A stretch of DNA of 54,719 bases. It comes from a virus. Location: positions 1-54,719 of the IMG/VR virus record IMGVR_UViG_3300014166_000001; one strand, given 5' to 3'. A program made the position numbers and the translations under genes. This document shows, one piece after another, positions 25,924-54,719 of the stretch; the first letter of the stretch is position 1; each line of letters begins with the position of its first letter. The notes under the pieces are model-generated. The model did not search any database. It was not told the DNA's origin and worked only from the letters and a program-made list of their open reading frames with translations.

Positions 25924-26384
25924 AGTGGCGGCTTCTTCCTGAGGTATGACAGGAATAAACTGCACCTGTCCTCCGTCTTGACTGGCATGGTGAGAATATC
26001 CTGAACCGACACCAGGAGCGTGTTGACGTCATCCGAGAGCAGCGGCATTCCAGCGGCTTTCAGTTTGAACTGTGCGTCGTTGAACGCAATGGCGAGGTAC
26101 GCCGCCTTCATATCCCCGTGGCGAGTGACGATCGGACACCCATCGCCCACAAAGGCCATGGCATCGGCAGCCAGCTTGGCGTGGCCATCCCGACCGGTGT
26201 AGTCGACAGCCCCATTCGTATCAGCCTTGATCTCCTGGGCGTGAAACTCCAGATCCAGGGCTTTCTGCATGCGCTCCGCGATCCCAGCGTCCAGGGTGTT
26301 GAATTTCACCACATTCTCCATAAGCGGGTTGACCTGTGGCGGTCGCACCGGGAAAGCCAGTTGCGGGAGTTTGGTTAGAGGCAT
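25920..26384 (-). CDS. Hypothetical protein
   Basis: ORF. ATG at 26384 was chosen because it lies just downstream of the GIY-YIG stop at 26375. Confidence 0.5.
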   Translation of the reverse strand: MPLTKLPQLAFPVRPPQVNPLMENVVKFNTLDAGIAERMQKALDLEFHAQEIKADTNGAVDYTGRDGHAKLAADAMAFVGDGCPIVTRHGDMKAAYLAIAFNDAQFKLKAAGMPLLSDDVNTLLVSVQDILTMPVKTEDRCSLFLSYLRKKPPL

Positions 26385-27034
26385 GTTAATTTTGGTTTGT
26401 AGACCTTCGCCACCCATTGCGCGAGCTCGAAAGGAATTTTCGCTATGGCTGCTGAGGCGGCTTTGCGGGATTTGGATTTGCTGGCATGAGAATACGGCTC
26501 CAGCGTTTTGAACTCACCATTTGCGCGACGATTAGCCCAGTAAGCTCTGATCTTCGCTTTCGTTACCTCGCTTTTTGACTTTCCGGTATGGCCCGCAGCA
26601 ATCTTAGCTCTGTGCTCGGGGGATTTTGGAACTCCTTTGTGGGTTCGGACGGCTGCGGCACGAGTGTTTGGATGACACGGAATCCCGCGGTGTTTGGACG
26701 CGCTACGCTCAATGGAATCGGGCTTATGCTTGTAACCAAACGGCCCCTCGCCGCCATTGCTAAGGTTGTAACCGTTCGGCGCGAGGGAATTAAATCTACC
26801 AATTAGAACGGGCTCCACCTGGCAAAGTTCATACCACGAACTCGCTTCGTGGATGACCTGAATTGAGAATTGTTCAACTCCATGTTTGGCTATTGCGCGA
26901 TTTACTAGCCCGACATTGGGGCGCTTACGTGCACTGTAAACGTGCTCGTTCCATCGCCTTCGGACTCCGCGCGAGGTAATTCCGACGTAGCAGTGTCCAG
27001 TTGCTAAACAGGTGATGAGATAGGCTTGAAACAT
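26375..27034 (-). CDS. GIY-YIG homing endonuclease whose C-terminal about 35 aa duplicate the methyltransferase C-terminus
   Basis: YLITC...HCYVGIT...RRRWNEH (GIY-YIG), GYNLSNGGEG, NUMOD3-like KGVPKSPEHRAKIAAGHTGK, and the tail SKSKSRKAASAAIAKIPFELAQWVAKVYKP. Confidence 0.8.
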   Translation of the reverse strand: MFQAYLITCLATGHCYVGITSRGVRRRWNEHVYSARKRPNVGLVNRAIAKHGVEQFSIQVIHEASSWYELCQVEPVLIGRFNSLAPNGYNLSNGGEGPFGYKHKPDSIERSASKHRGIPCHPNTRAAAVRTHKGVPKSPEHRAKIAAGHTGKSKSEVTKAKIRAYWANRRANGEFKTLEPYSHASKSKSRKAASAAIAKIPFELAQWVAKVYKPKLTCL

Positions 27035-27663
27035 CGGGCAATCCAAGTTGAAAGTTCGATGGGAATTTTTGCTATTTGTGCAGACCACGCCTTTCGATGC
27101 TTACTCTTAGAGCTGAATTGTCGCGCGGAGTTTTCATAATTATCGTAGAACCACGATGGATATCCAAGTTGTTTGCGTGCAATATCGAAAGGCATTAGGG
27201 CTGGAACGTCGCCCCAAAAAAAGAAAGACCCACACCGCGCTTGTGCCCGCCCCACCCACGGCTGAGCCCCGCGAACATTCTCCACAACCATCGGGATAAA
27301 GTGGCCAGCGGCTTCTATCGCCTCGCGTTGAATCCGAAAGCAGGCGCGGAATAAAGCGAGTTCCTTATCAGTCCTCTCACTGGACGCCCGCACTTCCGCC
27401 GCAAGTTTTTTGGCTCTGCTCCAAGGCATAGCGCAATAGCTGAAAAATTGGCAAGGCGGTGACGCTACGATGAGCGCAGCGTCCTTGAATTGCCGACCGT
27501 GAATCGTGAGCACGTCTTGAATGACGAGTTGCGCGGGGTAACGCTTGCCATCGCCGTAGTCGTGGGCCTCGATGTCAAAGCCCACACATCTGTAGCCCTC
27601 GGCTAGTAGTCCTGAAGTCCACCCGCCGATCCCCGAAAAAAGGTCGATTGCCAACGGCTTCAT
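27004..27663 (-). CDS. DNA (cytosine-5) methyltransferase, unusually compact (219 aa)
   Basis: Motif I DLFSGIGG, motif IV PPCQFFS, motif VI ENV, and a C-terminal motif-X-like IAKIPIELSTWIA. Confidence 0.85.
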   Translation of the reverse strand: MKPLAIDLFSGIGGWTSGLLAEGYRCVGFDIEAHDYGDGKRYPAQLVIQDVLTIHGRQFKDAALIVASPPCQFFSYCAMPWSRAKKLAAEVRASSERTDKELALFRACFRIQREAIEAAGHFIPMVVENVRGAQPWVGRAQARCGSFFFWGDVPALMPFDIARKQLGYPSWFYDNYENSARQFSSKSKHRKAWSAQIAKIPIELSTWIARCFKPISSPV

Positions 27664-28865
27664 GTGAGAGACTTACGAGCATCCTCTTCCCAGCTAAGCG
27701 TGTTGCCGGTCGCGCTTTCCTTGCCGCCGCGGCGCCGACCCGGATCAGGTGGATCGTTCTTGTAGGTTTCCAGCTCGGCTTTCAACTCCGTAACCTGTTT
27801 CTCAGCCCGCATGCGCTTCAACTTCTCAACCGCAGCCATAGCAAACCGGTGCCGGATATGCGCGTTCTTCAGGATGCGGTCCTGCACACTGGCCGACTGG
27901 GCATCGAACAACTTAAAGGCTTCCTCGCGCGCGCCGTTCAATTCTTTATCGGTCGGGTCGTCGTGGTAGTCATCCACCGACTCGGCCAACTGCTTTTTGA
28001 CGTCCTCGTACAGCTTGCCCAACTCCGTGCGCTGGGTGATGTGTTTGGCTTCTTCATCCACCGTGCGCTGCTTCCAGTTGGCCTTTTCCTCTGCCAACGC
28101 TTCGGCGGCTTCGCGTTCCATGCCGTCTAGGCTCTTAATGTCGGGCATCACCAGCGTGGCTACCTTATCACCGAAAAGCTGTTCGCCTCGAGCAAGGGCT
28201 TTGTTGGGGGACTGGCGATAAAGCCGGGTCAGTTCTACGAGGTCGTCCAGGCTGCCTTTGCGCGTGGCATTGGTTTCGGGGTCGGTCACGTCCAAGGTTT
28301 CGATGAACCCTTTAGCGCGGTTGGCAGCCTTCTGGAATGGCACCTCGTACTTCTTCCTGAACTCATCGGAGGTTTCATGCTTTAGCGCGCGCAGTTGAGA
28401 CTCCTTCTCTTCCAACTGCTTTTCGAGTGTGCCAAGACGTTCTGTAAGCGTGGCCGTTTCCTTACCCTTAGCCTCGGCATCCTTGATCTTGGCCTCCAGA
28501 TCGGTGACTTGCTTGCTCTTGGTCGCCAGTTCGCCGTTCACACGGTCCAGTTCGGCGCGTAACTGCGGAGGTGCCTTTGGTCCAGCTATCACTTTGTTCG
28601 GGTCGGGCTTGGGTGGTTCAGGTTTGGCGGGCTCCGCTGGCTTGGCCGGCTCAGGCGGTGCATCCGGCTTCTTAGCTAACGGTGAGGCTTTGTCGAAGGC
28701 ATCGGTCAATCGCTTGTCGAAGTCCAAGACGGGATCGCCACCACCAGATGACGGAGCAGGCGAAGGCGCTGGAGCAGCGGCCGGCGCTGGAGATGGTGCG
28801 GGTGCTGGTTTAGCCGGGGCGGCGGGTGCCGCTGGCGCGGGTGGTGGTGTTGCTATTTCGGCCAT
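27660..28865 (-). CDS. Coiled-coil protein with a Pro/Ala/Ser-rich N-terminus (possible scaffolding protein)
   Basis: 401 aa. PAPAAPAAPAKPAPAPSPAP... followed by long charged heptad-like regions. The function is a guess. Confidence 0.55.
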   Translation of the reverse strand: MAEIATPPPAPAAPAAPAKPAPAPSPAPAAAPAPSPAPSSGGGDPVLDFDKRLTDAFDKASPLAKKPDAPPEPAKPAEPAKPEPPKPDPNKVIAGPKAPPQLRAELDRVNGELATKSKQVTDLEAKIKDAEAKGKETATLTERLGTLEKQLEEKESQLRALKHETSDEFRKKYEVPFQKAANRAKGFIETLDVTDPETNATRKGSLDDLVELTRLYRQSPNKALARGEQLFGDKVATLVMPDIKSLDGMEREAAEALAEEKANWKQRTVDEEAKHITQRTELGKLYEDVKKQLAESVDDYHDDPTDKELNGAREEAFKLFDAQSASVQDRILKNAHIRHRFAMAAVEKLKRMRAEKQVTELKAELETYKNDPPDPGRRRGGKESATGNTLSWEEDARKSLT

Positions 28866-28868
28866 AAG

Positions 28869-29150
28869 CTACTTCTTCTTTTTGCGTGGTTTGAGGCTGG
28901 GATCCTCGGGCATGGTTTCGGTGTAATGGATCAAGCCTGGCGATGGGAAAACAAACGATGACTCCTCGGCGTCAGCGATAGTCAAGAGCGTGTGGGCCAT
29001 GAACTCGACCCCGCGCAACTCCTCCCGGGTGGGTCCCTGCTGCGCTATTTGTGCTCGCGCATGCGTAAGGACTTGCTCGAACACTTCACCGCCAGCTATC
29101 GAGCGCCACTCAGACGCCAGCTTTTTGTTCTTAAGAAGTTCCGCACTCAT
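28869..29150 (-). CDS. Hypothetical protein
   Basis: 93-aa co-directional ORF. Confidence 0.45.
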   Translation of the reverse strand: MSAELLKNKKLASEWRSIAGGEVFEQVLTHARAQIAQQGPTREELRGVEFMAHTLLTIADAEESSFVFPSPGLIHYTETMPEDPSLKPRKKKK

Positions 29151-29155
29151 GGCTT

Positions 29156-29431
29156 TTAGTTCGAGTTGCCTCGTACCTGAACGATGTTGCTAGGCTCCTT
29201 GGGTTTCACAAACAGCTTTGCACAATGTTCAATGTCCACCGAAAGGGCATCGAGGCACACGCCGATATTCGCTCCCGTCTTTTGGTGCTGAATGCGGGTT
29301 ATGTTTCCTTCGGCTCCGGTGCTGATGTTCTGCTCGGCTTGGCAATAAGGCTGGCCTTGGGGATTCATCCCGAAGCTAAGGTTTGCGATGCCTCCACGAA
29401 GGAGTTTTTGAATACTTTCACTGGTGTTCAT
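29156..29431 (-). CDS. Hypothetical protein
   Basis: ORF with an internal ATG (MNTSES) downstream of the stop at 29466. Confidence 0.4.
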   Translation of the reverse strand: MNTSESIQKLLRGGIANLSFGMNPQGQPYCQAEQNISTGAEGNITRIQHQKTGANIGVCLDALSVDIEHCAKLFVKPKEPSNIVQVRGNSN

Positions 29432-29465
29432 TTTTGTATAAGTGTAACGGATTTGGTTTATGGAG

Positions 29466-30491
29466 TCACATTTGATTGATCGGCTGTTTATCAAACCAGT
29501 CATAGGCCAAAGCAGTGGGTTTTGGCCACGGCTTACCCTGCAGCATGTTGTTGCGTAGCTGGCGTATGTCGTAGGAGTTCATCGAGACTTTGCTGGTCTG
29601 AATGCGGTTGAGGGCACTGTGCGACTTGTCACGCGGCGTCCCGATCTCTCCCTTATCCTCGCGTCGCATGGTGGTGCCGATAAACTCTGGGGACCGGTCC
29701 TCGACAATGGCCATGCGCTCATCGAAGTAGATCGGCAAATTGTTGTTCTGGAGTAGAATGCCGAACAGGGAGTCCTCGCTGCCAAGCCCGTCGCATACGT
29801 CCTCGGGATAACCGTTGACCTTGAGTGCCCATTCGATCGGGATGCCCGTCGAGCAACCATACCACCACGATCCAGGCGCGCTAAAAGGGTTTCTGAGATG
29901 CTGATGAATGTCGTAATACTGGCGCACGTATGCAGTGCGGTTGTCTTCCCCGGTGACGATACCAGCGTTCTTGATCAGCCCGTTCTCGACCGTGACGCTG
30001 GTTCGCTTCTGGTACGGACCACACACGGCGTAATTACCAGCTTTCGCCTCGCGTACGGCATCCATCCAGCCCGGGAGCAGCACGCAGCGATCATCGACGT
30101 TTACCCAGTAGTCTCCAGCCGACCAGCAAAGCGCGGTGTTGCGGGAGTTGGCGGCCGCCCACCATTGGTCCTTGGTCAACCGGTAAGGTCCCTGCCACAC
30201 CGTGGGCTTGGGCGGTGTCCAGATGACGGGGCACTTCAACCCTGCCTTGGTTTGTGCCTTCATTACCTCAGTGCCACGAGTCCCGACGTCCGCAGACGTC
30301 CAGCCGTCACCTTCCTGGGCGAAGAAGTCGACCAGGATCAATTCAATGTCATCGGTCGGCTGTAGCTGCACCGCCAAGCTCTCGAAGAACCAATCGAAGC
30401 GAGGTTCTTTGCGCGACGTGATGTAGCCAATGGAAATAATTACCGTGCCCTCCCACAGTGATGGTACGATACTCCGTGCATTTGGTTGCAT
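29466..30491 (-). CDS. GT-A fold glycosyltransferase (GT2-like)
   Basis: ISIGYITSRKEP...ELILVDF, WVNVDDRCVLLPGW (DxD), GSEDSLFGILL. The start is uncertain (30491 or 30524) and overlaps the upstream gene. Confidence 0.6.
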   Translation of the reverse strand: MQPNARSIVPSLWEGTVIISIGYITSRKEPRFDWFFESLAVQLQPTDDIELILVDFFAQEGDGWTSADVGTRGTEVMKAQTKAGLKCPVIWTPPKPTVWQGPYRLTKDQWWAAANSRNTALCWSAGDYWVNVDDRCVLLPGWMDAVREAKAGNYAVCGPYQKRTSVTVENGLIKNAGIVTGEDNRTAYVRQYYDIHQHLRNPFSAPGSWWYGCSTGIPIEWALKVNGYPEDVCDGLGSEDSLFGILLQNNNLPIYFDERMAIVEDRSPEFIGTTMRREDKGEIGTPRDKSHSALNRIQTSKVSMNSYDIRQLRNNMLQGKPWPKPTALAYDWFDKQPINQM

Positions 30492-31000
30492 CTCCACCCT
30501 TTCTGCATAACTACATCGAGCCATACCTGATCCGCGGGGAATGGTGACTGCAACGTGCGAGCAAGTTCGGTTGGAATGATCAGCCCGACCGGGCCGCCCA
30601 GTGCTCCGTTGTAGTACTGGCTTTTTCCTAAATAGTAATGCTCAGCGTTGACGGCACAGTCGCAGTTGAACCGGGACAATTCGGTAAACCAAGGCCCTTC
30701 GATATAGGCATCGTCATCAAAAAGGAAACACCATTTGCTGTCGGCAAGCTTTACGAGGTCGTCCACGAACCCGCCCATGTTGTTGTACCCGCTGCCCCTT
30801 TGGCCGACCCAGAACGAGCCGCAGCCTTTGGTCAATTCCTGGGCCAGAAGGATCCGTGCGCCATCGTCGGAGTCCACGCGCAGCAGGATTTCCACCTCGC
30901 CCTTGTTCGTGCCCGGGGCATCGAGGATAGAGGATACGGCCTTGCGTAGCGACTCTTCGGAGCCGCTGCGTGTGGGCATGATGATCGAAACGGTTTTCAT
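30440..31000 (-). CDS. Glycosyltransferase family 2-like (GT-A)
   Basis: MKTVSIIMPTRSGSE...LLRVDSDD...FLFDDDAY. ATGA overlap with the upstream methyltransferase gene. Confidence 0.7.
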   Translation of the reverse strand: MKTVSIIMPTRSGSEESLRKAVSSILDAPGTNKGEVEILLRVDSDDGARILLAQELTKGCGSFWVGQRGSGYNNMGGFVDDLVKLADSKWCFLFDDDAYIEGPWFTELSRFNCDCAVNAEHYYLGKSQYYNGALGGPVGLIIPTELARTLQSPFPADQVWLDVVMQKGWRCNQMHGVSYHHCGRAR

Positions 31001-31773
31001 TCTGATCTTTTCCGACAGGTAATGAGCAAGTGCCAGCCTAGCGCCTTCTCCAGTGACCGGAACATCTCGTGCGGCATGGCTGTGAACCACGGCTCCCAGA
31101 CATACTGGTGCTGAACGTATTTCTCTACCACGTAGGGAAAGATGTGATCTTGATTCAGTTCGATCATATCGAAGTCATCCAACAACTCGTAAACTTGTTC
31201 AGCCGTGAAAGCCTGAACTATAGGGCAGCCGTCCTGAGCCTCGGTGCGGTTCAAACCAGAAGTGATAACTTTCCAAGAGTTACTGGCGTAGAGCATTAGT
31301 TTGAACACTGACTTTTTTCCGAGGTATGCTTGCACAGTATTAACCAACCGGTACGGGTTGTGGCAGTGATGGATTACTCCAAACGAATAGACTAGATCGA
31401 AAGTTTGAGGAGGGATGATCTTGGTTATCTCCTCGGCGTTACCAAGGTACAGCCTTCCTTTGAGCCCGTAGACTTCCAAACGCTTTCGTGTCAGTTCAAG
31501 ACTCACCTCCGAAAAGTCGATCCCGGTGTAGGTTGCTCCAGCCTTACAAAAACTCACGGCGTCTGTCCCGATGCCGCAACCTATTTCCAACACCCGCTTG
31601 CCTTTCCACCTGTCGAACTGAGCAAAGCCTGGAATGTGCGGCTCCACGAAGTATTTGCGTGCTTCGATCTCATCGAAGAATGCTTTCGTGCCAACCTCCG
31701 ACGTAGAATGGCGAATGTTGCATGGCTGACGGTCCCAGTAACTCCTGCTCTCGGATAAGGGGTCGGTGGTCAT
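30997..31773 (-). CDS. Class I SAM-dependent methyltransferase
   Basis: Motif I VLEIGCGIGTD, followed by GIDFS and a Rossmann-like pattern. Confidence 0.8.
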   Translation of the reverse strand: MTTDPLSESRSYWDRQPCNIRHSTSEVGTKAFFDEIEARKYFVEPHIPGFAQFDRWKGKRVLEIGCGIGTDAVSFCKAGATYTGIDFSEVSLELTRKRLEVYGLKGRLYLGNAEEITKIIPPQTFDLVYSFGVIHHCHNPYRLVNTVQAYLGKKSVFKLMLYASNSWKVITSGLNRTEAQDGCPIVQAFTAEQVYELLDDFDMIELNQDHIFPYVVEKYVQHQYVWEPWFTAMPHEMFRSLEKALGWHLLITCRKRSE

Positions 31774-32498
31774 TCTAAGTGTAAATCGGTGTTCGGAGCG
31801 TTATCGGCGCAAACCGGCCAGTTGCCCTCGACAAACTGAGCGTAAGCATCTGGCTTTCCGCCTTCGACGCCTTTGATGACTGGCGCGTAAACTTTGGCAT
31901 TGCCTAGCGTGGCGGCCCACCAGCTAAAACTAGACGGCGCGCGGAAGTGAACCTTGGAGGTCATAAGTTTATAGAAGGCTGGCAAACTAACCCATGTGGT
32001 GCCAAGCCCGGCCGCCGTGACGTCGCCTTGGAACGCAGGTAACCTAGTCGGACTGGTATCCACCTCCCATTCGCACTCTTCTGGCGAGAACCCGCGCACA
32101 AGAGCAGCATCCGCGTAGCACGTATTGCCAAGCGAAACCAACCCGGCGCCCAAGTAGTCCGTACCACGGCGCCAGTCCAAGAGCACGGGCCTCCTGTTCT
32201 CCAGCACTGGCCGCAGCATATCCAGCACGCTCGGCTTGATCCGCAGCCATTCTTTGACCTGTTTGCGCGTGTAGATCAGGCTGGATTGGCGTTGGTGGAG
32301 ATCTTCACCGAGAACGATGTCTGCTGGATTCCCGTTCGATCTGGGTCGAACAGCCTCGGGAATATCCCATATCTTTTCACCTACCCACGGATATTGGCAA
32401 AGCTGATGGCCATTTTGTTCGCAAAACGCACGTAAATAACAGTACTGGAAAAGCAAATTTCCCATTCGTCCTATGAATGGCATGAAACAAGTGCTCAT
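31770..32498 (-). CDS. Glycosyltransferase family 11-like (alpha-1,2-fucosyltransferase type)
   Basis: Three family motifs are present: GRMGNLLFQY (cf. GGLGNQMFQYA), DWRRGTDY (cf. HxRRGDY) and SSFSWWAATL (cf. STFSWWAAYL). Confidence 0.7.
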   Translation of the reverse strand: MSTCFMPFIGRMGNLLFQYCYLRAFCEQNGHQLCQYPWVGEKIWDIPEAVRPRSNGNPADIVLGEDLHQRQSSLIYTRKQVKEWLRIKPSVLDMLRPVLENRRPVLLDWRRGTDYLGAGLVSLGNTCYADAALVRGFSPEECEWEVDTSPTRLPAFQGDVTAAGLGTTWVSLPAFYKLMTSKVHFRAPSSFSWWAATLGNAKVYAPVIKGVEGGKPDAYAQFVEGNWPVCADNAPNTDLHLE

Positions 32499-32992
32499 CG
32501 GGTTTCTGGCTTTCTTCTGTTGTTTGCCTGATGCTTTCGAGTTTCCCAACAGCAATTACTTGCCTCGTAACCCTTGGAATTGTCGTTGCGCTCAAGGGTC
32601 AGACCGCTAGGGCACTCACCCATATCGTTAAGAGAGTTTTCAAACGAATCCAGCCATCGCTTGCATATGGTGATTCCCCGCCCTCCATAATTCTTCCAGT
32701 CCGCGCACTTAGGATTAGTGCACCTATTTTTCATCGACTTCCAAGAACTGTACGCCTTTGTTAATATCCCTCCGGTTGCGGCTCCGTGTTTTTTGGGTGT
32801 TCTCAGCAGTTCTGTTCTGAGGCACCCGCAAGACGCGTGTTTGCCGCTGATCAAATCCCCAGAAATGGCGACACTCTGTTTCCCACAATCACAGTCGCAA
32901 AGCCATCGGGTTTTTCCGTGTGGGCTGGATTCGACTTGTCGGACAACCAATAGTGCTCCGAATCTTTTATATTTCAGTTCTAATTTTTTCAT
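32495..32992 (-). CDS. HNH-superfamily-like homing endonuclease (W..M..RC...Y..YGGRGI ... ERNDN..GY...NC.W family)
   Basis: YSSWKSMKNRCTNPKCADWKNYGGRGITICKRW...TLERNDNSKGYEASNCCW. ATGA overlaps on both sides. Paralogue at 51003-51455. Confidence 0.7.
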   Translation of the reverse strand: MKKLELKYKRFGALLVVRQVESSPHGKTRWLCDCDCGKQSVAISGDLISGKHASCGCLRTELLRTPKKHGAATGGILTKAYSSWKSMKNRCTNPKCADWKNYGGRGITICKRWLDSFENSLNDMGECPSGLTLERNDNSKGYEASNCCWETRKHQANNRRKPETR

Positions 32993-33591
32993 CTTATGCG
33001 CTGGTACAAAGCCCCAGTTCCAATCGTGTAAAGTTTTCTGAACCCGAGTTGCAGTAATCGTTGTTCAGCTCGCGTGACAGCCCCACCAGCCCAAGCTAAA
33101 TCGTCGAGCACCGTGAATCCTCCGACTATGACTTGTTGAGCGAACCTCACCGTGTCACGAACAGCCTGATCATTATGCCCGGCATCTACGTGGAGTAAGC
33201 CTATTTGGTTCGGGACCTCGGCGTCGTCCGACTTCTTGCGGATGATTTTTGTGACGTTATCGAGCCCAAGCTGATGCAGCATTTGCATGAATTTTTGGCA
33301 AAGCCCTTCAAAGTCCTGACTCTCCCACCACTCCCGGTCCTCGTTGGTGGTCTGAGCCAGAATAGCCGCGTGTTTGTCCCAAGGCTCGATGCCCATGACG
33401 AGCCCACTGCCAATGGCCTTGTGCGCCAGGGCGAGAGGTATGAATGAACTGCCCCCGTAGATCCCGATCTCGACCGTCAACGCGGGGCGATAGCACAGAA
33501 CTAAGCTTGCGAGGACGTAGGCTTTATCTTTAGAACACCATCCAGGAATGGAAGGTTGAACTTTATCAATTAATTGAAATAGATCAGTCAT
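32989..33591 (-). CDS. Class I SAM-dependent methyltransferase (Methyltransf_24/CmcI-like)
   Basis: TVEIGIYGGSS...GIEPWD...LLHVDAGH...TVLDD pattern typical of small O-methyltransferases. Confidence 0.65.
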   Translation of the reverse strand: MTDLFQLIDKVQPSIPGWCSKDKAYVLASLVLCYRPALTVEIGIYGGSSFIPLALAHKAIGSGLVMGIEPWDKHAAILAQTTNEDREWWESQDFEGLCQKFMQMLHQLGLDNVTKIIRKKSDDAEVPNQIGLLHVDAGHNDQAVRDTVRFAQQVIVGGFTVLDDLAWAGGAVTRAEQRLLQLGFRKLYTIGTGALYQRIR

Positions 33592-34048
33592 GGTGTGGCA
33601 GCTCTCCTCTCATTTTGAGAGCTGCTGTGTTCCACGCTTCTGAGGCTTTTTGTGGATCGTTAAAGTAACCAAGATGCAAGCGTGTACCAAAAGACATGAT
33701 GAAGGCTCTCCATTTCTTGGCACCTTTATGCCAGTGAACACCACGGAACCCGCTTGTATTACGAGAAACGATCTTCTGATTGTGGGCTTGAGTGAATTTC
33801 GAGGCGAGTCTTAGATTAGACCTCTGGTTGTTGAGTGGATTGCCGTCGATGTGATCCACTTCCACTCCTTCAGGAGCTTCCATGATTATTCTGTGCATTC
33901 TCACGATGCGCTGATGGATTCCATCTGGCTTACCGAAATGAGTCACGGCAATCCCGTTTGAATAGCTCCATTTGCGTTCAGACAGCCAATCGAAATCAGT
34001 GTCATCGACCAAAGCTGAGAAGCCCTTGCTGAGACAGATCGTTTTCAT
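33584..34048 (-). CDS. HNH + AP2-domain homing endonuclease
   Basis: VDHIDGNPLNNQRSNLRL (HNH) and SGFRGVHWHKGAKKWRAFI...LGYF (AP2). ATGA overlap with the upstream gene. Confidence 0.85.
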   Translation of the reverse strand: MKTICLSKGFSALVDDTDFDWLSERKWSYSNGIAVTHFGKPDGIHQRIVRMHRIIMEAPEGVEVDHIDGNPLNNQRSNLRLASKFTQAHNQKIVSRNTSGFRGVHWHKGAKKWRAFIMSFGTRLHLGYFNDPQKASEAWNTAALKMRGELPHHD

Positions 34049-35007
34049 AGGTGCAACTGGTCGTGACTGAGTTTGAGCACGGAACAAGCGCTGTCATTTA
34101 TGCCGACTGATACCCAGAGCTTGCTGTCATGTTCGACGCACCCGCCAGGGAAAACAACCCGAGGCTTGTATTGATGGCATTTACTCCGTTCGGATACGGG
34201 AATCTGATCGAGTTCGCTTCCGTAAACGACGGGCTTCTTAGAAATAGCTTCCACTTTGAATGGTGACACTGGATCCATAAGCATCGCCCCCATAAAATAT
34301 CTACGCCTCCACCCATCAAATTCGTTATCCAAACCGCTATGGAAGAACCGCAGAAGTTTGCCTTGGTATTGGATCGCGGGTGTTCCGCCGCGTATCGATC
34401 CGTAAGGCCAGGATGGCGGGTCACTTGCAAAGGTTTCGATGATCTTCGATTGATCGAGCTGGAACACGACTTGTTTGGGTTCGGATTCATAAATGAAGTA
34501 GAGCGCATCGCCCACGGTCAGAGGAACGTGGTTCTTCTCGATCGGCTTAGGGTTAGGCGGCGTGGGTTGCTGCACGTTGACCACGGTGTTGCCCTCGAGC
34601 CTGCCGTATTTGACCACCGCGGTCGGAGGCATGCTCGGCCATGTGCTTTGCACCCAGCATATCCACACGTCTTGGCCGATATAGAACAGCTTTGGATCCT
34701 CGAAACTCGCCGGCTCCTCCGTCTTAATTTCGAGGTGCCGGTTGCTCAGCACTTTGCCGGTGAAGTCCAGTTCAGCTATGGCAAGCTTGGTCGCCAGCGT
34801 GGGGCCGTCATGGAAGCGATACGCCATAAGCAGCCCGTCGCCGTGCTTCACGATCGAGGGGTTGTAAGAATGTCGCACTAATTTTCCGATTTCAATCGGA
34901 AGGGTTTCCACCTGATCGGAAACCTTCGGGTATCTACTCGAAACCTTTAGCCGCTGAATGAACTCTTCTGCGAGTTTGGCATTATAAGTTATTCTTGGGT
35001 CACTCAT
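34045..35007 (-). CDS. Five-bladed beta-propeller glycosidase/glycosyl-phosphorylase-like protein (GH130/GT108-type)
   Basis: YNPSIVKHGDGLLMAYR, FEDPKLF, GSIRGGTPAIQYQGKLLRFFH, YFMGAMLMD. Pattern recognition only. Confidence 0.5.
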   Translation of the reverse strand: MSDPRITYNAKLAEEFIQRLKVSSRYPKVSDQVETLPIEIGKLVRHSYNPSIVKHGDGLLMAYRFHDGPTLATKLAIAELDFTGKVLSNRHLEIKTEEPASFEDPKLFYIGQDVWICWVQSTWPSMPPTAVVKYGRLEGNTVVNVQQPTPPNPKPIEKNHVPLTVGDALYFIYESEPKQVVFQLDQSKIIETFASDPPSWPYGSIRGGTPAIQYQGKLLRFFHSGLDNEFDGWRRRYFMGAMLMDPVSPFKVEAISKKPVVYGSELDQIPVSERSKCHQYKPRVVFPGGCVEHDSKLWVSVGINDSACSVLKLSHDQLHL

Positions 35008-35210
35008 AATCTTGAGTGCAACCTCCTGAATATAGTCTGTCGAGAAACACCAAAACACTCACCTATAGCTCTCATGGTCATTCCGCTGTCTTGCATTTGC
35101 CGCACGGAAATCATTTGTACATCCGTCAATTTTCTAAACATTGTTCCATGGAGCCTCCTGTCATGTTGGTTCTCGACACATGTCCCTATCCGTAGATTTC
35201 CAAATTTCGC

Positions 35211-36542
35211 TCATATCACCCGGTAAATCATCCCGGTCGCGTCAAACGCCTTGGCCCGGTCGAACAATGCCCAGAGCGCGTGTGGGTAAAAGACGTCCCG
35301 GCCAAGGATCATGTCGGGGATCTCTGGCATAACCGTTCTCCACCAGCTTTTGCGAGCGCAAAACAGATCGGCCACAGGCTGGAAGGACGCCCGGCCGTCC
35401 TTTTGGTTCATGCGATAGGCAAATGTGGCGTCGTGGGCAAGTAGTGCGTCGGTCAAGCCTTCACGAAACCGCGTATCCGGTCGAGTGAGGCACACAAAAT
35501 CGCTGTCGGTCGCCCGCTGCATTCCCATCCGGAGACAGTCCTTGAGGTACGGGTAACGCCGCGGGTCCTTGAGGTTAAGCATGCTATCCCGGCCGCACGC
35601 CCCGACTTCGATCGGCGTCATGGTCCAGGAGCCCGTCTCGTATTCAGTGAACCATTCCGGCCAGCGGCTTACGCCTTCGTACTCGGACCAGACATGGACG
35701 ATCTGCGGCATAGACTGCGCCCGAAAGCCTACCCCGCCAATGTTGTCCAAAGCCCACACAAAGCCGCTGATGCGCTCGATAAAGTCACTGTAACGACAGT
35801 AGAAAGTGTGGTTTGGTCGCCAAGGCGATCCATTCCAGAGCAGGGGTTTGTCGTTGGCAAAGGCCAACACAGGCAGCCCCGGGACCGCTCGGGCGAGGTG
35901 CAACGGGGCGGAGTCGGTCGCTATTAGACAATGTGCCCGCTCGTACAGCCCAAGCAGGTCGTAAATTCGCTCGGCTTTGACTTCGGCCAAGTCCACCACG
36001 GTCCACTTGTTGCGTGGGAACTTAGCCCGGACCAATTCCCGCACGACATTGGCGTAAGGGAATGGTGACGTCACCCCACCCAACGACAGGAGGACCGTCT
36101 TTGTTTTGCCGCGCGCCCACTCATCGACAAGCTTGTTTTCGCGCGCTTTGCTCCGTTTATCGAACAGCAGGTCGGGTTGGCCGTCCCACTCCGCCAGCTT
36201 GCCGGCCACGCGCCACGACTCCTTTTGAAAGCTGGTAGTTACCGCGGTTTGCTGCTTGGCCGGCCCGTAAACGTATTCGACAACGGCCTCCGTGCTGCAG
36301 TTCACTTGCGTACAACACCACTCGCCATTGATCGTCTTAGCCTGCTCGCATGCCTTGCCGACCTCATGGTAAGGCCCTTCGTAGATGTGAGGCTCGACGT
36401 AGTTAACGCCCTCGAGCACGGAACTGAACTCGCGCGCGACCATCAACCCGCAACGGTTGCCGCGTTGTTCCTCGGCGCGAAGGAGGGGGAGAATGTTGAG
36501 CACGTCTCCGAAACGGCCTAAAGCAATATACAAACGGCTCAT
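35211..36542 (-). CDS. GT9 (heptosyltransferase)-like glycosyltransferase fused to an unassigned about 170-aa C-terminal domain
   Basis: LYIALGRFGDVLNILPLL and LIATDSAPLHLARAVPGLPVLAF (cf. the GT9 D(S/T)G..HLAAA..P..LFG signature). ATG at 36542 forms an ATGA overlap with the upstream ORF. Confidence 0.6.
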   Translation of the reverse strand: MSRLYIALGRFGDVLNILPLLRAEEQRGNRCGLMVAREFSSVLEGVNYVEPHIYEGPYHEVGKACEQAKTINGEWCCTQVNCSTEAVVEYVYGPAKQQTAVTTSFQKESWRVAGKLAEWDGQPDLLFDKRSKARENKLVDEWARGKTKTVLLSLGGVTSPFPYANVVRELVRAKFPRNKWTVVDLAEVKAERIYDLLGLYERAHCLIATDSAPLHLARAVPGLPVLAFANDKPLLWNGSPWRPNHTFYCRYSDFIERISGFVWALDNIGGVGFRAQSMPQIVHVWSEYEGVSRWPEWFTEYETGSWTMTPIEVGACGRDSMLNLKDPRRYPYLKDCLRMGMQRATDSDFVCLTRPDTRFREGLTDALLAHDATFAYRMNQKDGRASFQPVADLFCARKSWWRTVMPEIPDMILGRDVFYPHALWALFDRAKAFDATGMIYRVI

Positions 36543-36781
36543 TCGCAAAAGAGTTGTTCCAGCGGCAGGACCGTCGCGTTCTTAATGGCCGCCATCTTAA
36601 AATGGTGCATCCCGCCGCACATATCGCAGACACACGGCCTGGTCAGCGTGGCGTTGATGATCATGACTTTGCCTTGCACGATCGCGTCAATGACTGACGG
36701 TCGAAAGAACTCATCTGGCGTCCCCAGTTCGCCCAGGCGCCTTACCAGTTTCTTTAGCAACTTGGTCTTTTTTGCTGTCAT
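36539..36781 (-). CDS. Hypothetical small protein
   Basis: 80-aa ORF coupled to the GT9-like gene. Overlaps the 3' end of the HTH ORF by 71 nt. Confidence 0.4.
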   Translation of the reverse strand: MTAKKTKLLKKLVRRLGELGTPDEFFRPSVIDAIVQGKVMIINATLTRPCVCDMCGGMHHFKMAAIKNATVLPLEQLFCE

Positions 36782-36962: not shown

Positions 36963-37631
36963 TTATACGGTGGGGCAGTCGAGGGCAAGCGGGACGTCTT
37001 TACGCTTCACGCCGCGCACGATGTTGGAAACCGTCGCTGGCCATATACCGTAGCTTTCGGCTATAGAGGTTTGAGTTTCTCCAGCCTTGGCTCTTGTGCG
37101 AATGTCGATCACTTCCTCTACTGACAATTTATGTACTGGACGTTCATGGATAACAGGTTCTCCGAATGACTGCCTTGCTAAGCCTCTTCCGATTCTCCAA
37201 ATTGATTGGAAAGTTACGTGGTGTTCGTCGGCTAGAGACTTGATGGTACGAGTTTTACCCTGAAGGTGATTTCTAATTTCAATCACCTGATCATCCGAAA
37301 GCTTTCCGAGGTTATTTGCCAATCCGAACCTTGGTTTGTGGCGATTTCTGGCAACCATCTCAAGCATGTTTTCGGAATCAGTCTTGGCTGTTAAGTGGTC
37401 CGGTCTAACACAACGAGGGGTATCGCACGAATGGCAGACCTTTTTACCTTCTTCGAGTCCCCTGTGTTCCACAATGTAAGAGATGACATGGCAAAGCCAC
37501 ATCCTTCCTTGGAAATGCATTCGGGCGTAAATTCCAGATGGGTTAGCCCTACAAATCCAGCATCCAGACGACTTGGTAACGGTGTTCCAAAACCTCGCCA
37601 GCTCGGCCTCTGTTAAACTAATGGTGATCAA
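36963..37631 (-). CDS. HNH homing endonuclease (HNH_3-type) with two HTH modules
   Basis: CWIC...CHSCDTPRCVRPDHLTAKTDSEN, then two ...QVIEIRN.../...EVIDIRT... HTH-like repeats. Confidence 0.85.
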   Translation of the reverse strand: MITISLTEAELARFWNTVTKSSGCWICRANPSGIYARMHFQGRMWLCHVISYIVEHRGLEEGKKVCHSCDTPRCVRPDHLTAKTDSENMLEMVARNRHKPRFGLANNLGKLSDDQVIEIRNHLQGKTRTIKSLADEHHVTFQSIWRIGRGLARQSFGEPVIHERPVHKLSVEEVIDIRTRAKAGETQTSIAESYGIWPATVSNIVRGVKRKDVPLALDCPTV

Positions 37632-37830: not shown

Positions 37831-38192
37831 TTTGATTACAAGACAAGAATACGCAACAAGCGTAAAAGAAGTTTCAGGGTGACATCAGAGCGGCGGTTCC
37901 CCCCGTCGCATCGGGCGTAAAGCCGTTCGCCCACGGCCAGAGAAATCTGCACGGCGTAGCGAGTCCTTCGCCTCTCGCAAGTTCCAAAAACCAACAATAA
38001 AACTTGTGCCCACTGTGGCCAATACAAACATCATAAAAGTTTCCGGACTTAAAGTCCTGATATAGAAAGGTTTATATCCCCCTGAGTACCAGCCAGTGCG
38101 GACAATTCAATGATTTCCTAGGTCGACGTCCCTACGATTGGGACAAGAAAATTTCCAAGGATCGCAAGCCACACTCGTACATTTACACCGGC

Positions 38193-39581
38193 ATGTACAA
38201 GACCGAGACATTCCCGACGTTCATGGGGACGACTCACTTGCACGAGCGCATCTATGTGACGCGGCCAAACGATCCCGGCCTGTGGACGCAGTTCGTGGCC
38301 GATCCTTGCATCGGGACGCCTTGCGATAACAATCGGCAATATATCGGCCATGGCGTGGACCAGCTCCGTTACGATCGCTATCGTCGGGAGTATCAGACCC
38401 CGGTGTTTTGCATCGACCAGTTGGACACCATCGAGGAGGGGATCCAGAAGATGGCGGCCATCGCCCAGGGCTACCAGGACCTCCCCGAAGAGATCTGCTC
38501 CGACTTCTTGCGCGTGTTGACGCTTCGCAAGGCGGGCACTGCGGCACTTCAGGGCGGGCTTTACCTGTGCGGCATGCAGGACGGGCAGGGCAACCCGATC
38601 GCCATCGACGTTGACGACAGCATGTTCGCCGTGGCCAACGGTGGTAACGCCGTTACGCAGAACTCGCTGATGATCAATTTGAATGCCAGCGGCGGGTTAT
38701 CCGCCAACGGCATTAACACGACTGCCGGCTTGGCGGCGTCCCTCGGCCAGTTGTCGATGGAATACCTCGCCAACGCCCAGGAGGATCTGGCGGCCAATGG
38801 TTATCACGACCGCGAATGGATGGTGGAAGGCAAGTTCTCGATCACCGTCGACCAAACGACTCGGCGCCGGCTGCTCGTGGCTAACCCGGCCCTCACGCAG
38901 ATGTATAGCGCGGCTGACTTCGCCAAAGGCGGGGCCTTCTACAGCTACGGCGTAACCACCGGTTGCGGTGATTGGCTCTTCAAAGAGGACAAGGCCCAGA
39001 TGCGCTTCCGCTTCCGGTCAGACCTCGACGGCCTGAACCTGAACGGTGCCGCGCTCAACGGTGCAGTGTGGATCCAGCAGGTTTGGCCTTTCCAGAACGT
39101 GGCGGCGACCTTCGGCCTCAAGCCCGTTTATTCCGCCATGTGGAAGAACGCGCCGATTCGCCTCTACCACGTCTACAACCGGGACGCCCGGATCGTTTAC
39201 GTGGGCGATATTGTTAGCATCAACGACGAGATGAAGTTCGGCCTCGCGCGTAGCTTCATGGGCCAATGGACTTGGAAGAGCCCGGACTACTTCAACGCCG
39301 TCGACCCCAACACCGGCGTCCTGTGCCAGTTCAACAACGACAAGCGCAACAAAGGCTATTGGCTGGGTGAGTACGACCTGGCAGAGAAAACGATCTATCC
39401 TGAGATAGAGCGGCTTATCTTGGCTCTGGGCGAACCCCAGCCATACGTTAGGGTCCCAAGAACTAACAATCCGTTTCTTGCGCCGTATAACGTGGGCGAC
39501 TACCAGAGCTTGTTGGCATACAATAGTCAGTGCGGCGAATATATTCCCACGCCGGGATTTTCGCTTCCCACTGAAGATTAA
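38193..39581 (+). CDS. Putative major capsid protein
   Basis: 462-aa ORF heading the plus-strand late block after a 360-nt leader. It is the only remaining ORF of capsid-like size. No motif proof. Confidence 0.45.
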   Translation: MYKTETFPTFMGTTHLHERIYVTRPNDPGLWTQFVADPCIGTPCDNNRQYIGHGVDQLRYDRYRREYQTPVFCIDQLDTIEEGIQKMAAIAQGYQDLPEEICSDFLRVLTLRKAGTAALQGGLYLCGMQDGQGNPIAIDVDDSMFAVANGGNAVTQNSLMINLNASGGLSANGINTTAGLAASLGQLSMEYLANAQEDLAANGYHDREWMVEGKFSITVDQTTRRRLLVANPALTQMYSAADFAKGGAFYSYGVTTGCGDWLFKEDKAQMRFRFRSDLDGLNLNGAALNGAVWIQQVWPFQNVAATFGLKPVYSAMWKNAPIRLYHVYNRDARIVYVGDIVSINDEMKFGLARSFMGQWTWKSPDYFNAVDPNTGVLCQFNNDKRNKGYWLGEYDLAEKTIYPEIERLILALGEPQPYVRVPRTNNPFLAPYNVGDYQSLLAYNSQCGEYIPTPGFSLPTED

Positions 39582-40168
39582 CGACTTAGGTATGAGTGAC
39601 GGGCAGCAGCAGGTTGTCCGTCACTCAGCCTTCGTTTGCCATGAGCAATGTTCCAAACAATGGTGTAAGGAACGTGGAGTTCTCTCGATATGGCGGCAAC
39701 TTCTCCATATTTTCCAGTCAGTCGAGAGGCTATTTGTCTCGCCATTTCATCAGAACATTTGCACATGCCATGCTTCTCACCGTGAAACGGATTATTAGAA
39801 AAATGGTTGTGACCATCGGCGGTCATCTTCTGCATGTTCGAGAACTGATCGCCATACTCAAGGTGTTTCGGATTACAGCACTGCGGGTTCGGTCCACCTG
39901 GGCAAATGTGGTTCACCTGTTTCCCTTCTGGAATTGGCCCTTGAGTAAGGATCATCACGGCTCGATGGGCGTAAATCTTGGAATTGACTCCCTCGCGGCG
40001 TTGGATCATTCCGTGGCCTCGAGGCCAATTCTTGCCGCACGGTCGAGTGCTTCCCATCCACGGCCAGCAATCGTCGGGACCTCTGACGTCAACCTTTGCC
40101 CAAAAGCGTTCCTGGAACGTGGGCGACAGTCCTTGCTCCTCCAAATATTCAGGGGTTATTTCAATCAT
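39578..40168 (-). CDS. HNH homing endonuclease (HNH_3-type)
   Basis: CWPWMG...AHRAVM...VNHICPGGPNPQCCNPKHLEYGDQFSN. Opposite strand inside the plus-strand late operon. Confidence 0.85.
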   Translation of the reverse strand: MIEITPEYLEEQGLSPTFQERFWAKVDVRGPDDCWPWMGSTRPCGKNWPRGHGMIQRREGVNSKIYAHRAVMILTQGPIPEGKQVNHICPGGPNPQCCNPKHLEYGDQFSNMQKMTADGHNHFSNNPFHGEKHGMCKCSDEMARQIASRLTGKYGEVAAISRELHVPYTIVWNIAHGKRRLSDGQPAAARHSYLSR

Positions 40169-49545: not shown

Positions 49546-50097
49546 ATGAGCGTAAGCAAACGGGCGCGTTTTGAGATTTTCAAACGGGACGGGTTCATGT
49601 GCCTGTACTGCGGTCGCAAGCCTCCGGAGGTGACATTGGAGGTGGACCACATGATAGCCAAGGCAAGCGGTGGGGGAGACGACACGGTGAATCTGGTGAC
49701 CAGTTGTGTTGAGTGCAACCAAGGGAAGAGCGACAGGCCGCTGACTCAGATACCACATCAGCACCTTCCTAGTGTGGCTGAGAGGCACGAAAAGATTGAA
49801 CAGTTAAGAGCATTGGCTGAACTGACTTTGTGCAATTCTCAACTGGAGGATGAGCAGTGGTATCTTGTGAGCGATTTATGGATGAAGCTGCAGGGAGAGG
49901 AGCTCGACAAGTATGAACTGTCAGGAAGGCTTGCCACGGCTGTACGTCGGTTTCTAAAACTGCTGCCTCTGGAGGAGGTATTGGATGCGGTGAAGGCGAC
50001 CTTTGACAATACCAATGGCAACGATCGCTACTTCTACGGGGTGTGCCGGAGGAAGATCGAGAGAAGGAAAAACCCGCTTGCTAAACCGCCCGATTAA
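49546..50097 (+). CDS. HNH endonuclease (canonical HNH/EndoVII-type)
   Basis: RDGFMCLYCGRKP...LEVDHMIAKASGG.DDTVNLVTSCVECNQGK. Confidence 0.85.
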   Translation: MSVSKRARFEIFKRDGFMCLYCGRKPPEVTLEVDHMIAKASGGGDDTVNLVTSCVECNQGKSDRPLTQIPHQHLPSVAERHEKIEQLRALAELTLCNSQLEDEQWYLVSDLWMKLQGEELDKYELSGRLATAVRRFLKLLPLEEVLDAVKATFDNTNGNDRYFYGVCRRKIERRKNPLAKPPD

Positions 50098-54376: not shown

Positions 54377-54719
54377 GGTTTGCCGCCTCACGGAGTCCCG
54401 CAATCCTACCCTTGCGTTCGCCAGCGGCTAAGGCTTGTTCCAGCTGTTTCTGCGCGGCGGTGAGTTGCTCTTTGAGCTTTTCGAGCAACCCGTCCCGCTC
54501 CGCCTCCACCTTAGTCAGCGCCTCCTCAAAGTTTGTGGCAATTTCGGACCAGTTTATGTCATCGCCTGCAACGATGCCTTCGAGTCGGGATATTTCATCA
54601 TCGATGGTCTGCGTCGCAAACCCTTGCGGGCTCAACTCGTCTTGAAGTCGCTTCAGCAACTCAATCGTCACCTTGAGCTCACCAACGTCCACCATGCCAC
54701 GCCGGGCGAGTTGATCGGA
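54342..54719 (-). CDS. 3' part of the wrap-around Zn-ribbon/coiled-coil gene (see 1-255)
   Basis: The ORF is open to the window end. 54597-54719 duplicates 1-123. Confidence 0.6.
   Translation of the reverse strand, partial: SDQLARRGMVDVGELKVTIELLKRLQDELSPQGFATQTIDDEISRLEGIVAGDDINWSEIATNFEEALTKVEAERDGLLEKLKEQLTAAQKQLEQALAAGERKGRIAGLREAANHERFTTRAESC
54597..54719. repeat. Terminal overlap, identical to 1-123
   Basis: Direct comparison. Confidence 0.95.

Follow-up and report, generated by a model that had tools for sequence, protein, structure and literature searches.

We analysed a 54,719-nucleotide stretch of viral DNA (IMG/VR record IMGVR_UViG_3300014166_000001, positions 1 to 54,719; the whole stretch is referred to as the window), in which positions 29,466–36,542 carry a cassette of genes for sugar- and methyl-transfer enzymes. 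Both ends of the window (1–123 and 54597–54719) consist of the same exact 123-base repeat, so the stretch represents a complete phage genome of 54,596 bp, the repeat being either an assembly overlap or a short terminal repeat. Our reading of the cassette, to which we give slightly less than an even chance, is that its products glycosylate a virion protein in the cytoplasm. The cassette encodes the following enzymes, the first of which we call the anchor.

35211–36542, minus strand: anchor enzyme, 443 residues; predicted glycosyltransferase (GT) with a GT-B domain of GT9 (heptosyltransferase) type, approximately residues 1–270, followed by a small GT-A-like domain, approximately residues 280–443
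34045–35007, minus strand: GH130-type five-bladed propeller enzyme, 320 residues from its ATG; nearest to beta-1,2-mannoside phosphorylases/synthases
32989–33591, minus strand: class I S-adenosylmethionine (SAM) methyltransferase, Methyltransf_24 (MT24; Pfam E = 6e-11)
31770–32498, minus strand: GT11/GT65-like putative fucosyltransferase, 242 residues (237 from the second ATG at 32483), assigned on motifs and family matches
30997–31773, minus strand: class I SAM methyltransferase, Methyltransf_25/23/11/12 (Pfam E of about 1e-15; PHROG 22502, E = 2e-65)
30440–31000, minus strand: small GT2-type GT-A enzyme, 186 residues (own PF00535 score 19.5 bits, cut-off 23.3)
29466–30491, minus strand: GT2-type GT-A enzyme, 341 residues (own PF00535 score 16.4 bits, cut-off 23.3)

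By sequence, the anchor has no family match in Pfam, PHROG or the PDB. Its AlphaFold2 model, computed from an alignment of 53 homologues, has a predicted local distance difference test (pLDDT) score of 93.9, and the best PDB matches found for it by Foldseek are all GT9 enzymes: 3tov (E = 1e-8), WaaF (1psw, 3e-6), WaaC (2h1h, 1e-5) and 2gt1, with 6dfe also listed and the protein heptosyltransferase TibC (4rap) also among the best. In BFVD, the N-terminal part matches phage entries named 'RfaF', 'GT family 9' and 'Aah/TibC'. The C-terminal part (approximately residues 280–443), a domain of about 170 residues that the preliminary description of this locus left unplaced, was searched only within the whole model and gives small GT-A matches in the PDB and BFVD (GT2-like, GT17, GT25 and GT-A domains of larger enzymes), which places it as a small GT-A-like fold. 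The modelled anchor is therefore a GT9-like GT-B domain joined to a small GT-A-like fold. Protein Q89398 of the chlorovirus PBCV-1 is also among the structural matches of the model.

The anchor shares two motifs with WaaC, WaaF and TibC, an N-terminal GDVLxxLP and a C-terminal D-S/T-x-x-x-H-L/V-A. In alignments, GDVLNILP of the anchor pairs with GDVLHTLP of WaaC and TDSAPLHLARA with NDSGLMHVAAA of WaaF, and GDVLxxLP and TDSAPLHLA recur in 86 and 101 of 120 homologues, respectively. The G-D of the N-terminal motif includes the catalytic Asp13 of WaaC, and the GT9 hallmark at the C-terminus reads D-S/T-G-x-x-H-L-A. Sequence similarity, in contrast, lies under all curated thresholds: the anchor has no match to Pfam Glyco_transf_9, the NCBIfam heptosyltransferase III/RfaQ models give E-values of 0.04–0.09 (12–13 bits against cut-offs of 170–467), the anchor profile reaches E = 1.9 with 3tov in the PDB, and hhalign yields a probability below 5% with both WaaC and WaaF. 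The anchor also differs from these enzymes in its appended GT-A and often GH130 domain, and in being almost exclusively viral. We found more than 290 full-length homologues, all metagenomic and on similar contigs of 53–57 kb; 48 IMG/VR loci carry the gene, as opposed to three hits of a pattern scan in 185,579 species genomes. The family is thus almost confined to viral contigs, and the GT9-like/GT-A/GH130 fusion is an uncharacterised enzyme family.

For comparison across related phages, we collected four metagenome contigs with the anchor protein, 48 IMG/VR loci with the anchor profile, 16 loci with a major capsid protein (MCP) profile plus the three genome hits, and clustered their open reading frames (ORFs). 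Individual loci are referred to below by L numbers.

A family profile of the GH130-like protein matches solved structures in the PDB, namely 5b0p (E = 4e-8), 7fip (1.4e-5), 9eqq (Uhgb_MS; 1.6e-4) and 9fj8 (4e-3). The window protein itself scores 22 bits with Pfam PF04041 (E = 8.7e-5), under the gathering score of 26; homologues in which the anchor and the GH130 part are fused have precomputed PF04041 matches, and NCBIfam models of beta-mannobiose phosphorylases give E = 3e-6. The Glu-Asp of the EDP(R/K) motif is invariant among 14 members of the phage family (E103 and D104; the motif reads EDPK), and this stretch aligns to the solved enzymes with a low score. The phage protein thus shows significant profile similarity to GH130 phosphorylases, although at very low identity. 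The GH130 beta-1,2-mannoside phosphorylases Uhgb_MS, Teth514_1788 and Lin0857 have dual phosphorylase/transferase activity, and such enzymes can make beta-mannosides from mannose 1-phosphate (Man-1-P) or GDP-mannose (PMC12814180).

The two methyltransferases differ in their distribution. The MT24 enzyme has homologues in related phages, two of which (L003 and L004) show weak matches to PF04989, the rhamnosyl O-methyltransferase/CmcI family. The second methyltransferase (30997–31773) is absent from all loci that we fetched and is found in the window phage only; its closest cultured homologue, 50% identical, is gp226 of Synechococcus phage Bellamy, which lies within a cluster of nucleotide-sugar and glycosyltransferase genes (L075, NC_047838, 172–182 kb). 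The uncharacterised Bellamy cluster comprises two nucleotide-sugar epimerases, two glycosyltransferases, a Nol-like carbamoyltransferase, a NadE-like gene and a UDP-glucose dehydrogenase.

The putative GT11-like fucosyltransferase is the weakest of the enzyme calls. The window protein has no significant Pfam match of its own; sub-threshold matches to PF01531 (GT11) occur in 22 of 53 family members (best E = 5e-5), with no other family recurring, and the scores listed for the window protein and three loci reach at most 16.4 bits against a cut-off of 23.9. The protein contains GRMGNLLFQY, WRRGTDY and SSFSWWAATLG, corresponding to the three fucosyltransferase-type motifs (G-x-x-G-N-x-x-F, the GDP-binding R-x-G-x-D-Y and a C-terminal S-x-F-S-W-W). 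Among 120 homologues, GRxGNxLF is present in 102, RxGxDY in 54 and S(S/T)FSWW in 100, and residues R110, D114, S189 and F191 are invariant in the family alignment. In the PDB, the family profile finds only POFUT1, at the first two motifs and without significance. Approximately 116 homologues of the gene were found.

Both GT-A enzymes score under the Pfam cut-off on their own and are assigned through relatives. A homologue of the 186-residue enzyme in L017 (44% identical) scores 36.6 bits with the Pfam GT2 family, and homologues of the 341-residue enzyme score 37.2 and 30.5 bits; the GT-A homologues are overall 33–44% identical. The 341-residue enzyme, whose true start may be a GTG near 30443, occurs in 12 related loci and is kept in a large part of the window's clade. 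For the GT11-like and GT-A proteins, NCBIfam contributed no further assignment, and PDB sequence and profile searches gave nothing usable for the 341-residue enzyme. Models, profiles or homologues thus support all the enzyme families first proposed for the locus (GT9-like, GH130, two SAM methyltransferases, GT11-like and two GT2-type enzymes).

The seven ORFs, presented at first as co-directional, are all on the minus strand, at or near the positions originally assigned and without internal stops, but they are not contiguous: two HNH homing-endonuclease genes and a short helix-turn-helix (HTH) ORF, overlooked when the island was described as enzymes only, are interleaved with them. The other small genes of the minus-strand block are as follows.

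36963–37631, minus strand: HNH homing endonuclease with a C-terminal HTH, first gene of the block (PHROG 1872/826/59, E = 1e-16 to 5e-20)
36539–36781, minus strand: g80, an 80-residue ORF of unknown function; ATGA overlap with the anchor gene, weak homologue in L002 only
35004–35141, minus strand: 45-residue HTH-like ORF with translation MFRKLTDVQMISVRQMQDSGMTMRAIGECFGVSRQTIFRRLHSRL and the HTH-like sequence MRAIGECFGVSRQTIFRRL
33584–34048, minus strand: HNH + AP2 homing endonuclease separating the GH130-like gene from the MT24 gene (Pfam HNH_3, E = 2e-9, and AP2; PHROG 99, E = 2e-36)
32495–32992, minus strand: HNH homing endonuclease between the MT24 and GT11-like genes (PHROG 374, E = 1e-53)
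28869–29503, minus strand: g115 and g93, two small ORFs with no assigned function; in relatives, g93 is found a short distance upstream of the gene for the Pro/Ala-rich protein described below

The reported ATGA joins exist, with six overlaps inside the block, but in three of the six, one partner is a sugar gene and the other is one of the two interleaved HNH genes. ATGA overlaps extend from g80 through the Pro/Ala-rich protein to a C5 methyltransferase gene. A promoter and terminator scan remained at chance level, with 17 terminator-like sites against 15.6 expected in shuffled sequence. The 45-residue ORF occupies most of the 203-nucleotide gap between the anchor and GH130-like genes and has an ATGA overlap with the ATG of the latter; it may encode a small regulator or be what is left of the DNA-binding domain of a homing endonuclease. 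The same junction holds HNH genes or small ORFs in L004, L010 and L012. The HNH + AP2 gene is absent from the equivalent site in L002, L003, L009 and L013, and since relatives lack the two interleaved HNH genes at these sites, we regard both genes as insertions. The genome contains at least six homing-endonuclease genes, five of HNH and one of GIY-YIG type (32495–32992, 33584–34048, 36963–37631, 39578–40168, 26375–27034 and 49546–50097). Homing endonucleases also separate cassette genes in L004, L010, L012, L017, L021, L044 and L046, with the anchor/GH130 junction as a recurrent site, and they may be responsible for the reshuffling of cassette genes among co-infecting phages.

The cassette is surrounded by genes of the head module.

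38076–39581, plus strand: MCP, HK97 fold, 501 residues; divergent from the cassette (AlphaFold2 pLDDT 73)
27660–28865, minus strand: Pro/Ala-rich coiled-coil protein, 401 residues; co-transcribed with the cassette, immediately downstream
27004–27663, minus strand: short C5 cytosine DNA methyltransferase, 219 residues (PF00145, PHROG 363); translationally coupled to the operon
26375–27034, minus strand: GIY-YIG homing-endonuclease ORF (Pfam, PHROG), overlapping the C5 methyltransferase
21839–24082, plus strand: probable portal protein, 747 residues, assigned on size and adjacency alone
19248–21098, plus strand: large terminase subunit (TerL), 616 residues; convergent with the cassette (distant homologues match PHROG 2, E = 1e-10 to 3e-15)

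PDB sequence and profile searches gave nothing usable for the MCP. A Foldseek search of the PDB with its model returned 182 matches at E ≤ 1e-3, and the best 50 of these are all phage capsid entries. The proposed capsid gene is thereby confirmed as encoding an HK97-fold MCP, but its start appears to be an ATC at 38076 and not the ATG at 38193. That first ATG would drop 39 residues that are conserved in frame; ATC 38076–38078 aligns with the Met of every MCP homologue (these begin MPLT or MALT), and it is preceded by AAAGG. The ATC is either a rare non-canonical start or an ATG-to-ATC assembly error. Public gene callers record a shortened MCP of 462 residues. The C-terminal tail of the MCP is disordered and variable; most homologues have abundant Ser, Thr, Pro and Asn there, and the window's own tail is poorer in Ser and Thr.

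Profile searches gave no match for the 747-residue probable portal, and PHROG and Pfam gave no informative family match for the 401-residue Pro/Ala-rich protein. The Pro/Ala-rich N-terminus is kept in most of 19 homologues compared. In L051, the gene order is portal, g475, Pro/Ala-rich protein and MCP, the usual position of a scaffold, and the 401-residue protein is probably the scaffolding protein. Because the MCP, TerL and this protein in scaffold position surround the cassette, the original placement of the island between the capsid gene and the Pro/Ala-rich protein, within the structural (head-morphogenesis) region, is correct. The C5 methyltransferase occurs in two of approximately 56 loci, both times beside a homing endonuclease, and in L046 it lies within the cassette. 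The last ~30 residues of the GIY-YIG ORF (AAIAKIPFELAQWVAKVYKP) repeat the C-terminal motif of the C5 methyltransferase (AQIAKIPIELSTWIARCFKP), and the two tails resemble each other weakly in DNA. Apparently, the endonuclease entered the methyltransferase gene close to its 3' end, and a replacement C-terminus was provided.

In the clade of the window, the genes are arranged as MCP (divergent); anchor, GH130, MT24, GT-A enzyme, variable stretch, g93 and Pro/Ala-rich protein; and (convergent) g475, portal and TerL. The anchor and the GH130 enzyme are fused in 26 of the 120 best homologues, L040, L044 and L046 encode a GT-B + GH130 fusion that lacks the C-terminal domain, and L040 also fuses MT24 to the GT-A enzyme; these fusions link the core enzymes to each other as parts of one pathway. 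In L043 and L046, two sister loci, portal, Pro/Ala-rich protein, cassette and MCP all lie on one strand. In the unrelated, lambda-like L023, the anchor is situated directly between TerL (GpA) and the portal.

The genes behind the anchor vary from clade to clade. Some loci have a DegT fragment, a PglD-like acetyltransferase and an unknown gene, and elsewhere there are FkbM and MT24 methyltransferases. A second clade, with a different terminase neighbourhood, has GT47, GT32/TcdA-like enzymes and several methyltransferases, and a third has a pyruvyl transferase, FkbM and Stealth. L047 and L048 carry a sugar C-methyltransferase and a GT2 enzyme, and L052 carries GT25, GT10 and GT47. The GT11-like gene and the small GT2 gene are present in some relatives only. 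Three relatives with a 59%-identical MCP (L067, L068 and L070) lack the GT9-like cassette and have a 563-residue ORF in its place (e.g. L068 6942–8633, minus strand). This ORF shows no relationship to the anchor and has a weak DUF6492 match only; it may be an alternative glycosyltransferase. By eye, two DxD-like motifs (EHD and DAD) can be discerned in it. In the synteny comparison proposed in the preliminary description, the island is replaced in three relatives and differs in content behind the anchor by clade. The notion of a one-off seven-enzyme set did not hold in view of the numbers of anchor and GT11-like homologues: the exact gene combination is particular to the window, and the core is present in hundreds of relatives. 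The cassette is less singular than first thought, and more interesting as a family-level phenomenon.

Exact protein matches to the window occur on two metagenomic contigs (Logan SRR5881394_9374 and ENA ERZ27286429 k141_1658061). Among 50,697 phage records, megablast of the region yielded no cultured relative, and tblastn with the anchor, MCP and GT-A enzyme sequences gave no match. Neither tRNAs nor Rfam families were found in the window, PHROG and Pfam searches assigned no function to most large genes of the genome, and no DNA polymerase is recognisable anywhere in it. An 1830-residue protein (5251–10743, minus strand) has only a weak T4_Y16D match and a PHROG of unknown function; similar proteins of 1000–1800 residues in relatives (family F27 and the like) adjoin the scaffold-like gene, and it is probably an internal virion or ejection protein. 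A DUF6745 protein is encoded at 3995–5053 on the minus strand (E = 1.6e-27). A DUF6745 protein is also found in L002 (14991–15545), within a variable stretch downstream of the cassette core that also encodes an Acb2/Tad1-like anti-defence hairpin protein.

No island protein contains a transmembrane-like segment. Among the domains recorded for the whole genome, that is, the precomputed Pfam matches of its genes on which all such genome-wide absences rest, there is no polyprenyl-phosphate transferase (PglC/WecA), Wzx flippase, Wzy polymerase or WaaL-type ligase and no enzyme of nucleotide-sugar synthesis. Because neither a transmembrane segment nor a lipid-carrier or nucleotide-sugar synthesis domain is recorded, the pathway would be cytoplasmic and run on activated sugars of the host, which agrees with the first description of the locus: the products are soluble, and no lipid-carrier, flippase, polymerase or ligase step is recorded genome-wide. 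We reject a conventional O-antigen or capsule conversion cassette, as the island encodes no membrane protein and neither a lipid-carrier step nor a lysogeny module is recorded.

We propose that the phage encodes a pathway located entirely in the cytoplasm, by which a glycan is assembled and methylated. Its conserved core would consist of the GT9-type/GT-A anchor, the GH130-type beta-mannosyl enzyme, the MT24 O-methyltransferase and the GT2-type GT-A enzyme, to which the window phage would have added the GT11/GT65-like putative fucosyltransferase, the second methyltransferase and the small GT2 enzyme. Host nucleotide sugars would serve as donors, together with sugar 1-phosphates for the GH130 enzyme. 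The anchor, because it is conserved and always present, is an obvious candidate for the enzyme that acts on the acceptor itself. The glycan would then be extended by the appended GT-A domain, the GH130 enzyme (by analogy, adding beta-mannosyl units from GDP-mannose or Man-1-P), the GT-A enzymes and the GT11-like enzyme, and the methyltransferases would cap hydroxyls. With transcription alongside the head genes, a short methylated oligosaccharide would be added to a virion protein before or during assembly, the MCP being the leading candidate for the acceptor and its C-terminal tail a candidate site, and the outcome would be particles with a strain-variable sugar coat. What the analysis shows are the enzyme folds and families, the domain fusions, the solubility of the products, the position in the head module and the variability of the cassette; which acceptor and sugars are used, in what order the steps run and that expression is late, we infer.

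We favour a virion protein as the acceptor because the anchor lies among head and packaging genes in unrelated clades, the cassette shows serotype-like variability, no lysogeny module is present, and mycobacteriophages and chloroviruses offer precedents. A virion protein is a plausible candidate on this context, and several points weigh against it. Head genes will often be found nearby by chance within ±10 kb in a 55-kb genome, so that only immediate adjacencies carry weight, and late timing is deduced from gene position alone. The only hint of a host is weak: two of the three genome hits of the anchor pattern are contigs of metagenome-assembled genomes from Verrucomicrobiales and Pirellulales, pointing faintly to a host in Verrucomicrobia or Planctomycetes. 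GT9 enzymes classically act on the inner core of lipopolysaccharide (LPS). Glycosylation of DNA has been demonstrated for phage glycosyltransferases related to LPS enzymes, whose genes have also been observed beside those for terminase (bioRxiv 10.1101/2023.12.21.572611), and a C5 DNA methyltransferase is co-transcribed with the cassette here and lies inside it in L046.

The observations on GT9 enzymes lead to the view that the cassette remodels the host envelope, which we think unlikely. Soluble glycosyltransferases at the cytoplasmic face would act on the LPS core or another lipid-linked precursor, as WaaC, WaaF and the prophage enzyme TarP do, and would alter the surface of the infected cell, for example to block superinfection or re-adsorption of progeny. 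The best structural matches of the anchor are indeed LPS heptosyltransferases, L052 carries arrays of GT25, GT9 and GT10 enzymes, the variability of the cassette resembles that of O-antigen or lipooligosaccharide loci, and peripheral cytoplasmic glycosyltransferases need no transmembrane segment. However, the recorded whole-genome Pfam matches include no integrase or lysogeny module, and the known surface-converting enzymes of phages are typically prophage genes. The position of the cassette in the head/packaging module of several unrelated clades also speaks against an envelope target, and no ligase, flippase or acyl-carrier partner was found. Finally, because its family is nearly absent from cellular genomes, the anchor does not resemble a recently captured LPS gene of a host.

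Hypermodification of DNA, raised as an alternative in the preliminary description and kept here as a rival, appears less probable still. The glycosyltransferases would place a mono- to oligosaccharide, possibly methylated, on a modified base and thus protect the genome from nucleases, along the lines of the C5-methyltransferase, 5mYOX and glycosyltransferase pathways known from metaviromes. Pyle et al. describe phage glycosyltransferases that add up to trisaccharides, heptose included, to the 5-hydroxymethylcytosine made by a C5 methyltransferase and a dioxygenase, and these published DNA glycosyltransferases resemble LPS and teichoic-acid enzymes and can lie near terminase and structural genes (bioRxiv 10.1101/2023.12.21.572611). 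The C5 cytosine methyltransferase that is translationally coupled to the operon, with its homologue in the L046 cassette, fits such a pathway, but the enzyme is found in just the two loci noted above, each time beside a homing endonuclease. The reading is further weakened by the missing partners: no TET/JBP-type dioxygenase or thymidylate-synthase-like domain is recorded in the genome, where the dioxygenase was judged by precomputed Pfam matches only and a very divergent one could escape, and tblastn with E. coli ThyA, T4 gp42 and T4 beta-GT found nothing at E ≤ 1 in the window and 73 related loci (approximately 1.2 Mb). Moreover, the GT-B enzymes published as DNA glycosyltransferases were similar to T4 beta-GT, BshA and MshA and not to GT9 (bioRxiv 10.1101/2023.12.21.572611). 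Partners such as a pyruvyl transferase, Stealth, a sugar C-methyltransferase and GH130 suit a complex glycan better than a base adduct, and the cassette lies with head genes, not with replication genes. Least probable of all is that the Pro/Ala/Ser-rich N-terminus of the co-transcribed 401-residue protein, singled out in the preliminary description, is the acceptor. That protein is encoded immediately downstream, the composition of its tract is kept in most homologues, and Pro-rich Ser/Thr tracts are O-glycosylated in other bacteria. The tract is nevertheless a poor candidate: Ser and Thr make up between 0 and 38% of it in the homologues (the richest 40 residues contain none in L011 and 5–7% in L043 and L046), relatives that have lost or never had the GT9-like gene still possess it, and no homologue was found beside the anchor in most other anchor-carrying clades. 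The position in L051 and the coiled-coil body suggest a scaffold, which would leave the virion.

Returning to virion-protein glycosylation, the closest parallels are found in chloroviruses and mycobacteriophages. In PBCV-1 (A064R, A111/114R and A075L), multi-domain glycosyltransferases with methyltransferase activity build a methylated, deoxyhexose-containing glycan on the MCP, in the cytoplasm and independently of the host ER/Golgi or lipid carriers. The cassette shares with PBCV-1 a virus-encoded set of glycosylation and methylation enzymes, with Q89398 among the structural matches of the anchor, whereas PBCV-1, a giant virus of eukaryotes, has a double jelly-roll capsid and other domain combinations, and we know of no GH130 enzyme or GT9 anchor described for it. 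The precedent among tailed phages is the virion glycosylation of the mycobacteriophages Che8, Corndog and Myrna (Freeman et al. 2023, cited in PMC11600133 and PMC12363180); it likewise involves tandem glycosyltransferase genes and a soluble cytoplasmic pathway with host sugar donors. The two systems are unlike in that no sequence relationship was found (tblastn, 50,697 phage records), that the present cassette has a GT9-like/GT-A fusion, GH130 and a GT11-like enzyme, that its host is probably Gram-negative and not an actinobacterium, and that it is a predicted glycosylation system.

The clusters of C5 methyltransferase, 5mYOX and glycosyltransferase genes resemble the cassette in occurring on metagenomic phage contigs, in having several LPS-related glycosyltransferases, sometimes near terminase or structural genes, and in the C5 methyltransferase of the operon (bioRxiv 10.1101/2023.12.21.572611). 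They differ in that no 5mYOX or ThyS partner was found here and that the glycosyltransferase families are not the same; the glycan-tailoring partners of the present cassette are not described for these DNA pathways (bioRxiv 10.1101/2023.12.21.572611). On this analysis, the cassette would most resemble virion-glycosylation machineries, and what would be new is the unrelated enzyme set, the GT9-like/GT-A(/GH130) anchor and the apparently large group of phages that carry it.

Extended to the family, our proposal becomes a little more speculative. A large group of uncultivated tailed phages, whose hosts are probably Gram-negative, may cover its virions with a glycan of its own making that is methylated and perhaps contains fucose or mannose. 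The GT9-type/GT-A (often GH130) enzyme would start this glycan, and the tailoring genes would be swapped like a serotype locus, perhaps helped by homing endonucleases. To our knowledge, virus-made sugar coats of tailed phages are documented only for some actinobacteriophages, in which they blunt antibody recognition. If the proposal is correct, virion glycosylation would extend well beyond actinobacteriophages and chloroviruses and be widespread in environmental phages, given hundreds of anchor homologues and several unrelated types of head module. These phages would use a different and rapidly diversifying toolkit, in which a GH130-type enzyme has been recruited as a probable transferase and the anchor represents a new, widespread enzyme family. 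Glycosylated virions would also bear on phage–host recognition, on the evasion of defences and on phage engineering. Should DNA or the host envelope be the target instead, the anchors would constitute a new family of writers for these substrates.

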